From assembly GCF_041248615.1 (NCBI RefSeq), contig NZ_CP158426.1: a stretch of 64,000 nt of DNA; one strand, given 5' to 3'. Both the position numbers and the translations under genes were made by a program. The stretch is from Escherichia coli. GTDB lineage: Bacteria > Pseudomonadota > Gammaproteobacteria > Enterobacterales > Enterobacteriaceae. Below, piece after piece: positions 31,370 to 31,664 of the stretch (the first letter of the stretch is position 1; each line of letters starts with the position of its first letter). Under the pieces are notes generated by a model. It made no database searches and was not told the origin of the DNA. It saw nothing but the letters and a program-made list of their open reading frames with translations.

Positions 31370-31664
31370 ATGCGTCTCCGGAAGTGGAATGCGGACGAAG
31401 TTATCATACCACTTTATTCATGGGTATGCCATTGTTCATATATAAATTCGGTGATTGAATTAATGTATTAAATTAATATTGTGAATATTTATAAATTCCT
31501 AAAAATTAAGTATCGTCATTGTGAAAGTTACTATATTTCAGTAAGTTAATTTCCCGCCTTTAAATTTAATATTAACTAAAAATGCTTTTTTATATTGACT
31601 TACAATAAGTCTACATTTCTAATGCGCTAACTTTCTGGAAACAATTTTGTAAGATCAAATTTAT

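Follow-up and report, generated by a model that had tools for sequence, protein, structure and literature searches.

In the Escherichia coli chromosome analysed here, a four-gene operon for a chaperone–usher pilus lies between the hexuronate genes exuT and exuR, and the element in question is the spacer that separates the first gene of this operon, which encodes the chaperone, from the divergently transcribed exuR. The whole stretch of DNA that was analysed, referred to below as the window, comprises 64,000 nucleotides of contig NZ_CP158426.1 (assembly GCF_041248615.1) and matches, with 100% identity, the chromosome of isolate 362 (NZ_OW967178.1), an E. coli of human origin from a hospital in Madrid. 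The spacer extends from 31370 to 31664 and is thus exactly 295 bp long, with the start codon of exuR at 31369 on the minus strand and the start of the chaperone open reading frame (ORF) at 31665. In K-12, exuT and exuR are adjacent with a gap of 129 bp; exuR and exuT of the window are 96.5% and 98.2% identical to their K-12 counterparts, and RefSeq annotation confirms both neighbours, with exuR as a member of the GntR family, as had been stated in an initial annotation of this region. The features discussed below are collected in table 1.

That annotation had also described the spacer as extremely AT-rich and of the kind of composition that is typical of DNA bound by H-NS, and both descriptions are borne out by the numbers. 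The GC content of the spacer is 27.1% and that of its operon-specific part (31421-31664) is 23.4%, compared with 45.2% for the operon and 50.1% for the window; only 0.29% of all 295-bp segments across the 64 kb reach such AT-richness, and the segment with the lowest GC content of all (24.7%, starting at 31395) falls at this very place. TpA steps make up 12.6% of the steps in the spacer DNA as against 4.8% window-wide. Several other kinds of element that such a region might contain were considered and rejected. The short ORFs in the spacer (22-45 amino acids) are mechanical calls without support for a hidden peptide gene, and an Rfam scan of 31000-32000 with E values up to 1 returned no RNA family. 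Neither does the spacer resemble a fim-type invertible switch, the repeats being short and AT-rich with imperfect arms of at most 17 nt and exact arms of 9-10 nt, nor a pap-type Dam/Lrp phase switch, as it contains only a single GATC (at 31653) and no pair. Elsewhere in the window, a low-GC patch at 8477-9142, with a minimum of 26% GC, coincides with yhaC (approx. 8430-9617), an annotated pseudogene with an internal stop.

The four genes of the operon stand in the order chaperone, major pilin, usher and tip adhesin, which is that of class 5 or alpha-clade pili, and the RefSeq product names agree with it. Among the NCBIfam models, the best matches are TcfA for the chaperone (E = 1.7e-40), CblA and TcfB for the major pilin (E = 5.9e-33), TcfC for the usher (E = 2.5e-165) and TcfD for the adhesin (E = 3.1e-30), all of them below the curated cut-offs, and in phmmer comparisons the adhesin matches the solved structures of CfaE with E = 1.3e-27 over residues 59-358. 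With this gene order and with homology to Cfa, Tcf and Cbl proteins, the previous assignment to class 5 stands. However, because identity of the chaperone to CfaA, CsaA, CsoB and CsdB amounts to only 31-38% (35-38% for the first three) and because the best models are those of Tcf and Cbl, the operon classifies as a class 5/alpha-clade chaperone–usher system outside subclasses 5a-5c of enterotoxigenic E. coli (ETEC). The operon has been described before, as have its location and its broad occurrence: it was reported as ‘CS1-like’ in SE11, E24377A, HS, ATCC 8739, 536 and SMS-3-5 (Oshima 2008, PMC2608844) and described, for E. coli W, as eafABCD with exuT and exuR on either side (Archer 2011, PMC3032704), and according to a paper that cites it, Wurpel 2013 lists the locus among its chaperone–usher types. 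The eaf cluster has been said to be without a tip adhesin gene (PMC3032704), a statement that fails for the present allele, as the fourth gene is, by its match to CfaE, clearly CfaE-like. On the promoter or the regulation of the CS1-like/eafABCD operon, no study was found in the literature.

How this operon is transcribed can be approached by comparing its alleles. For this comparison, we used the spacers of eight E. coli alleles, which are 74-100% identical to that of the window, and of one Escherichia-clade strain. A single plus-strand candidate, TTGACT-17-TCTAAT, has 10 of the 12 consensus bases; no other candidate in this allele reaches nine, and in every E. coli allele examined it is the top or joint-top candidate. 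Across the eight alleles, all 12 positions of the two hexamers are invariant, as compared with 48.5% of the columns of the operon-specific spacer (hypergeometric P approx. 1e-4) and with only 5 of the 17 positions between the hexamers themselves. The allele of the Escherichia-clade strain has TTGACA-17-TTTAAT instead, and here, too, the GCAC and AACTTT motifs come next. All this amounts to good phylogenetic evidence that the predicted sigma-70-type pilus promoter is real, with transcription probably starting near 31630. This promoter was missed by a general consensus scan because its −10 hexamer lacks A as the second base. The leader is devoid of a Shine–Dalgarno sequence (cfaA and cooB have AGGAGG before their start codons), and these two features together suggest a weak intrinsic output. 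The leader changes at 0.48-0.87 of the rate of synonymous substitution (dS), i.e. close to neutrally. An alternative −10, TACAAT (31600-31605), was rejected: although A is its second base, the best −35 available to it in this allele agrees at only three of six positions, and the 74% alleles do not share this hexamer. Upstream of the promoter, the AT-rich DNA (31436-31594) evolves at 0.32-0.71 of chaperone dS, and within it three invariant islands, ATATAAAT (31440-31447), ATTCCTAAAA (31495-31504) and TTTCAGTA (31536-31543), are found amid variable DNA of 20-25% GC.

The opposite end of the spacer belongs to exuR. Here, the exuR leader is approximately 70% identical to K-12, with insertions and deletions (estimated by eye from a pairwise alignment), and homology stops after ATACCACTTT; among the alleles that carry the eaf operon (eaf+), this leader has a substitution rate of 0.10-0.29 of chaperone dS. 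It includes a predicted ExuR/UxuR-type operator, and the two boxes in the uxaC–exuT spacer which it matches are located at 38548-38565 and 38368-38385. A consensus scan of 31250-31800 yielded only one promoter-like match, which is the predicted exuR promoter, and the same scan of the K-12 spacer gave no match. The −10 of this promoter overlaps the operator, in agreement with the autorepression that has been reported for ExuR (PMC9369180). The promoter is conserved in all alleles, and its −35 lies in operon-specific DNA, so that eaf+ spacers provide exuR with a −35 that is different from, and matches better than, that of K-12. That the region is shared with the divergent exuR promoter, as had been proposed, is therefore supported by the predicted operator and promoter at its left end. 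The additional suggestion that insertion of the operon may have altered the control of exuR is reasonable in so far as the predicted −35 differs from that of K-12, but operator and −10 are retained.

Moreover, ‘insertion’ is too simple a term for what distinguishes the two haplotypes. The operon-specific segment extends from approximately 31418 to 36763, with 36764-36837 being the exuT terminator region. Since not only the exuR leader but also the exuT terminator has diverged far beyond the adjoining genes, the difference between the haplotypes is no clean insertion of an operon. The exuT terminator region is, like the exuR leader, approximately 70% identical between the haplotypes, with insertions and deletions (again by eye). 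The exuT terminator is also the sole terminator-like hairpin past the adhesin gene, with a T-run on the minus strand only, and transcripts of the pilus operon may therefore run antisense into exuT.

Table 1. Features of the exuR–pilus–exuT region, with positions in the window.
Feature	Position	Strand	Remarks
exuR	30593..31369	-	GntR-family hexuronate repressor, divergent from pilus operon; ORF and RefSeq annotation
exuR-proximal backbone (exuR leader)	31370..31417	-	homologous to the 129-bp K-12 spacer, diverged
ExuR/UxuR-type operator, predicted	31398..31415	-	AAAGTGGTATGATAACTT; matches two boxes in the uxaC–exuT spacer
predicted exuR promoter	31403..31432	-	-35 ATGGCA 31432-31427, 18-bp spacer, extended -10 TGgTATGAT 31408-31403
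AT-rich upstream region	31436..31594	+	candidate site for binding of nucleoid proteins or regulators
T-tract TGCTTTTTTATA	31583..31594	+	best Rns-core match (9/12), or UP-element-like; directly upstream of -35
predicted pilus promoter	31595..31623	+	-35 TTGACT 31595-31600, 17-bp spacer, -10 TCTAAT 31618-31623
leader	31624..31664	+	28-41 nt from -10 to ATG among alleles; invariant AACTTT 31629-31634
periplasmic chaperone (EafA-like)	31665..32381	+	38% identical to CfaA
CS1-type major pilin	32411..32911	+	RefSeq product name
outer-membrane usher	32984..35686	+	RefSeq start 33002; TcfC model match
CfaE/CblD-family tip adhesin	35683..36762	+	RefSeq name; phmmer match to CfaE structures
exuT terminator hairpin	36785..36820	-	backbone-derived; terminator scan and K-12 alignment; right edge of operon-specific segment
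exuT	36838-38136	-	downstream of pilus operon; followed by uxaC

The operon fills the gap between exuT and exuR in 1,905 of 5,426 complete E. coli genomes, i.e. in approximately 35% (the spacer was found in 1,915), and is absent from approximately 65%. However diverged they are, the E. coli alleles are all located at this one site. That of the window is a rare one, with 5-9 genomes at least 99% identical to it, while most are approximately 94%, 88% or 74% identical in the spacer. In four diverged alleles, all four ORFs are intact. Pairwise dS ranges from 0.28 to 0.78 for the chaperone, from 0.5 to 0.9 for the usher and from 0.8 to 2.1 for the adhesin, and the ratio of non-synonymous to synonymous rates (dN/dS) is 0.05-0.08 for the chaperone, 0.04-0.11 for the major pilin, 0.03-0.07 for the usher and 0.07-0.12 for the adhesin. 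By these measures, the operon is maintained by strong purifying selection and is not decaying, and as the ORFs are intact with dN/dS of 0.03-0.12, it must be expressed and useful somewhere. That it could instead be a functionless relic, cryptic since it has fallen out of use, is hardly credible. Its absence from so many genomes would fit such decay, and so would the insertion sequences in two strains: in strain 04A19CPO007, an IS1 element lies inside the exuR–chaperone spacer and the usher gene is a pseudogene (L007, 2681-3378), and in strain EcPF16, an IS110-like element is present in the locus. Four ORFs that have stayed intact in four alleles over a dS of 0.3-2.1 at such low dN/dS, as well as invariant promoter hexamers, argue against it.

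To judge from the IS1 and IS110-like cases, disruption of the operon is ongoing in some lineages. The deep divergence of the operon alleles, as opposed to the close similarity of exuR and exuT to their K-12 counterparts, suggests ancient lineages or introgression, kept by selection. E. coli DNA from this locus also occurs in public assemblies under foreign names: SFGN01000125.1 (‘MAG: Lachnospiraceae bacterium’) spans exuR to exuT, and NZ_RQIT01000073.1 (‘Bradyrhizobium sp. RP6’; 426 bp, 0.67x) carries part of the chaperone and major-pilin genes. These labels indicate contamination or misbinning.

The initial annotation had pointed to the need of characterised class 5 operons (CS1, CFA/I) for an activator of the AraC family and had noted that the flanks contain none. 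The latter is correct: the regulatory genes annotated in the window and in 10 kb beyond each end are agaR, tdcR, tdcA, yhaJ, exuR, ebgR and nfeR, and a tblastn search with Rns and MarA against the six frames of the window produced nothing better than E = 0.37. The premise that such an activator has to be encoded close by, however, is weak. On p948, cfaD itself is located approximately 46 kb away from cfaABCE, and no AraC gene occurs within 7 kb of the four-gene module in Yokenella, Edaphovirga, Enterobacillus, Burkholderia and Schauerella, i.e. in relatives from five genera. The module is found by gyrA in Yokenella, by gor in Edaphovirga and by aqpZ in Enterobacillus, with no hexuronate genes nearby. 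With cfaD that distant and relatives that have no AraC gene either, the absence of a nearby activator is uninformative; in this branch of pili, and as a rule outside ETEC, operons have no AraC gene linked to them. In Edaphovirga cremea, the module has two tandem adhesin-like genes (L017, 11162-12232 and 12428-13498), the products of which are 41% and 40% identical to the adhesin of the window.

The alternative that had been offered, a plasmid-borne Rns-like protein, does not hold up as a general regulator. DNA similar to rns, cfaD, aggR or csvR is present in 212 of the 5,426 complete genomes, always on plasmids and never on the chromosome, and set against approximately 1,915 genomes with the operon this means that at least ~89% of the carriers have no Rns-type gene. 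In isolate 362, where the search covered the window and plasmid P1 (70.7 kb, pOXA-48-like), no AraC gene is annotated on P1; the second plasmid of this isolate comprises only 2,941 bp. What this plasmid does encode is one protein of the H-NS family and two of the Hha/YmoA family (L022, 41749-41979; L024, 6343-6937), which could add to, or perturb, the silencing of AT-rich loci on the chromosome.

Overall, sequence comparison shows a spacer with two parts that have different affiliations. Its left ~47-65 bp belong to exuR and contain its leader as well as the predicted operator, which coincides in part with the extended −10, and its right ~230 bp travel with the CS1-like/Eaf alpha-clade pilus operon. 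This operon would be transcribed from the one conserved sigma-70-type promoter described above, which is probably weak by itself, due to its −10 and its leader, and which is embedded in 23%-GC DNA of the kind that H-NS may be expected to coat. In ordinary culture, the activity of this promoter is probably low or silent, and it would be switched on by chromosomal and widely shared factors that act at the upstream islands rather than by a dedicated AraC-type activator such as Rns. We consider such an arrangement, i.e. a weak conserved sigma-70 promoter in H-NS-type DNA that depends on chromosomal factors at the islands and in most hosts is independent of Rns, the probable explanation, if only with modest confidence. 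Silencing of the pilus operon by H-NS, in particular, is plausible from the composition of the DNA.

A number of observations weigh against this explanation. Two matches at 8 of 10 positions to the high-affinity H-NS motif (that of Lang et al. 2007) do fall on invariant islands, but with 1.4 expected for this composition, this is not significant. Transcripts of the usher and the major subunit were detected in Shiga toxin-producing E. coli (STEC) grown in defined medium, and their presence in exponential-phase culture argues against complete silencing (PMC6033998). The −10 is devoid of its most conserved base, so that it may have been misassigned, or else the promoter may be wholly dependent on another activator. 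Furthermore, TGCTTTTTTATA agrees with the Rns core in 9 of 12 positions at the right place, and Rns may act on it in ETEC hosts; in our own reading of the cooB promoter region, the best match there has TATT rather than TATC.

Among the competing explanations, a pilus promoter that is not silenced at all seems unlikely to us. In this case, the near-consensus −35 and the 17-bp spacing would provide for low-to-moderate constitutive transcription, and the AT-richness would just reflect a foreign origin. A promoter with 10 of 12 consensus matches that are invariant across alleles, the transcripts in exponentially growing STEC and strong purifying selection would all agree with constitutive activity. 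The missing A in the −10, the missing Shine–Dalgarno sequence and the 23%-GC surroundings, a typical target of H-NS, do not, and chaperone–usher pili of Typhi are weakly expressed in the laboratory. In addition, work by Korea et al. in 2010 is said to have found the cryptic chaperone–usher operons of K-12 to be repressed by H-NS. Control in trans by a plasmid-borne protein of the Rns/CfaD/AggR type, which would bind beside the −35 and relieve repression by H-NS, is similarly doubtful, although there are precedents: all ETEC class 5 pili tested are dependent on Rns or CfaD, with one Rns site abutting the −35 and, in class 5b, often a second one approximately 70 bp upstream on the opposite strand (PMC2579436). 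The Rns core motif is TATTTTTTTATC, and the promoter-proximal Rns site of cooBp is at −40.5 (PMC5192496). AggR sites consist of WWWWWWWTATC at 21-23 bp from the −10; they are degenerate, and AT-rich foreign promoters easily acquire them (PMC6392122). The T-tract TGCTTTTTTATA, which abuts the −35 of the pilus promoter and is 23 bp away from the −10, has the position of the sites at cooBp and at AggR promoters, and its match exceeds the 67% identity of footprinted sites; moreover, E24377A carries both rns and the operon. Core matches in the spacer are, however, fewer than expected by chance (one as against 3.2 with at least 9 of 12 positions, five as against 14.7 with at least 8 of 12), none of the alleles has TATC next to the −35, where TATA, CATG or TGTG is found instead, and a distal site on the opposite strand is missing, as the spacer contains no GATA and no match of at least 8 of 12 on the minus strand near 31518. 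An AggR-type site, AATTAAGTATC (31504-31514), was discarded, because no −10 follows 21-23 bp downstream and the 88% and 74% alleles do not share its TATC. The RNA sequencing data on the CfaD regulon are uninformative about this operon, since H10407, the strain from which they come, has an empty exuT–exuR site. Data sets on H-NS occupancy and on an hns mutant likewise exist for H10407, whereas none turned up for an eaf+ strain. With the great majority of carriers devoid of an Rns-like gene and none annotated on the large plasmid of isolate 362, an Rns-type protein may act in ETEC or enteroaggregative E. coli hosts, where it would at best be an add-on, but it cannot be the general regulator.

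Quite improbable is a coupling of the pili to hexuronates, in which either ExuR at the shared spacer or divergent transcription of exuR would make pilus expression responsive to gut galacturonate or glucuronate, and for this reason the operon would be fixed beside exuR. An ExuR box is indeed present within the shared spacer, all E. coli alleles are located at this one site, and ExuR has been reported, in work cited in PMC9369180, to regulate virulence and colonization in enterohaemorrhagic E. coli and Citrobacter rodentium in response to galacturonic acid. Yet this single box lies approximately 180 bp upstream of the pilus −35, relatives in other genera have their operons beside gyrA, gor and aqpZ, and the fixed site is equally well explained by vertical descent together with homologous recombination through the flanks. 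Near the pilus promoter, the best candidate for a further ExuR box has 6 mismatches in 18 positions and was rejected, and the generic palindrome AATTGGTATACCAATT has no match in the window with up to three mismatches. As there is no second box, direct control by ExuR is unsupported; an indirect coupling could operate via the shared spacer. Less probable still is a further scenario, to which we would give little weight, in which an adhesin otherwise kept silent by H-NS is induced in the gut by galacturonate or glucuronate from pectin or mucus, through ExuR or through divergent transcription of exuR. In a second strand of this scenario, the deeply diverged alleles (dS up to approx. 2) would reflect balancing selection over long periods on an adhesin to which expression is confined to the host.

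The significance of these findings should not be overstated. The locus itself is published, it is the rule outside ETEC that pilus operons have AT-rich DNA upstream and no activator gene next to them, and as they stand, the findings matter little. What is gained is a precise map of the control region, with the exuR operator and promoter, one pilus promoter and three islands, along with evidence for purifying selection. The promoter map and the junctions of the spacer are newly described here and are shown by comparison of alleles and haplotypes; the evidence for selection is likewise new. Together, these results make this region a reasonable target for finding the natural inducing signal of an adhesin that occurs in about one-third of all E. 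coli, many STEC and clinical isolates among them.

How does this control region relate to those of known pilus systems? The published eaf or CS1-like cluster is the same locus, a four-gene alpha-clade operon at the exuT–exuR site; the window differs from it in carrying a rare allele, and the existing descriptions are silent on promoter and regulation. With the class 5 pili of ETEC (CFA/I, CS1, CS17, CS19, PCFO71 and CS14), the operon shares gene order and homologous proteins, and their promoters likewise have AT-rich upstream DNA and a T-tract that abuts the −35. In contrast to these systems, which are plasmid-borne, the present operon is chromosomal and most of its hosts have no Rns-type gene. 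Its promoter also differs from theirs by having neither a strong Rns core nor TATC, but a good −35, and by the absence of a Shine–Dalgarno sequence, and whereas class 5b transcripts start 16-20 nt upstream of the gene, the leader is longer here, with 28-41 nt from the −10 to the ATG.

Closer in another sense are Tcf of Salmonella (tcfABCD) and the cable pili of Burkholderia (cblBACD), alpha-clade systems outside ETEC that provide the best NCBIfam models for all four proteins. The scores are far below the curated cut-offs, though, which means that these proteins are not orthologues, and the genomic sites differ. The cbl genes have a two-component system (cblS, cblT and cblR) linked to them that controls their expression; near the relatives of the present operon, the search covered AraC genes. 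The tcf promoter is weakly expressed under all laboratory conditions tested (PMC5809473).

Finally, there are the cryptic chaperone–usher operons of K-12 to which the operon may be compared. These belong to the gamma or pi clade, as opposed to the alpha clade in the present case, for which control by H-NS is plausible only. Nevertheless, they have much in common with the operon studied here, i.e. they are likewise chromosomal, have AT-rich upstream DNA and no dedicated activator, and are probably expressed at low levels.

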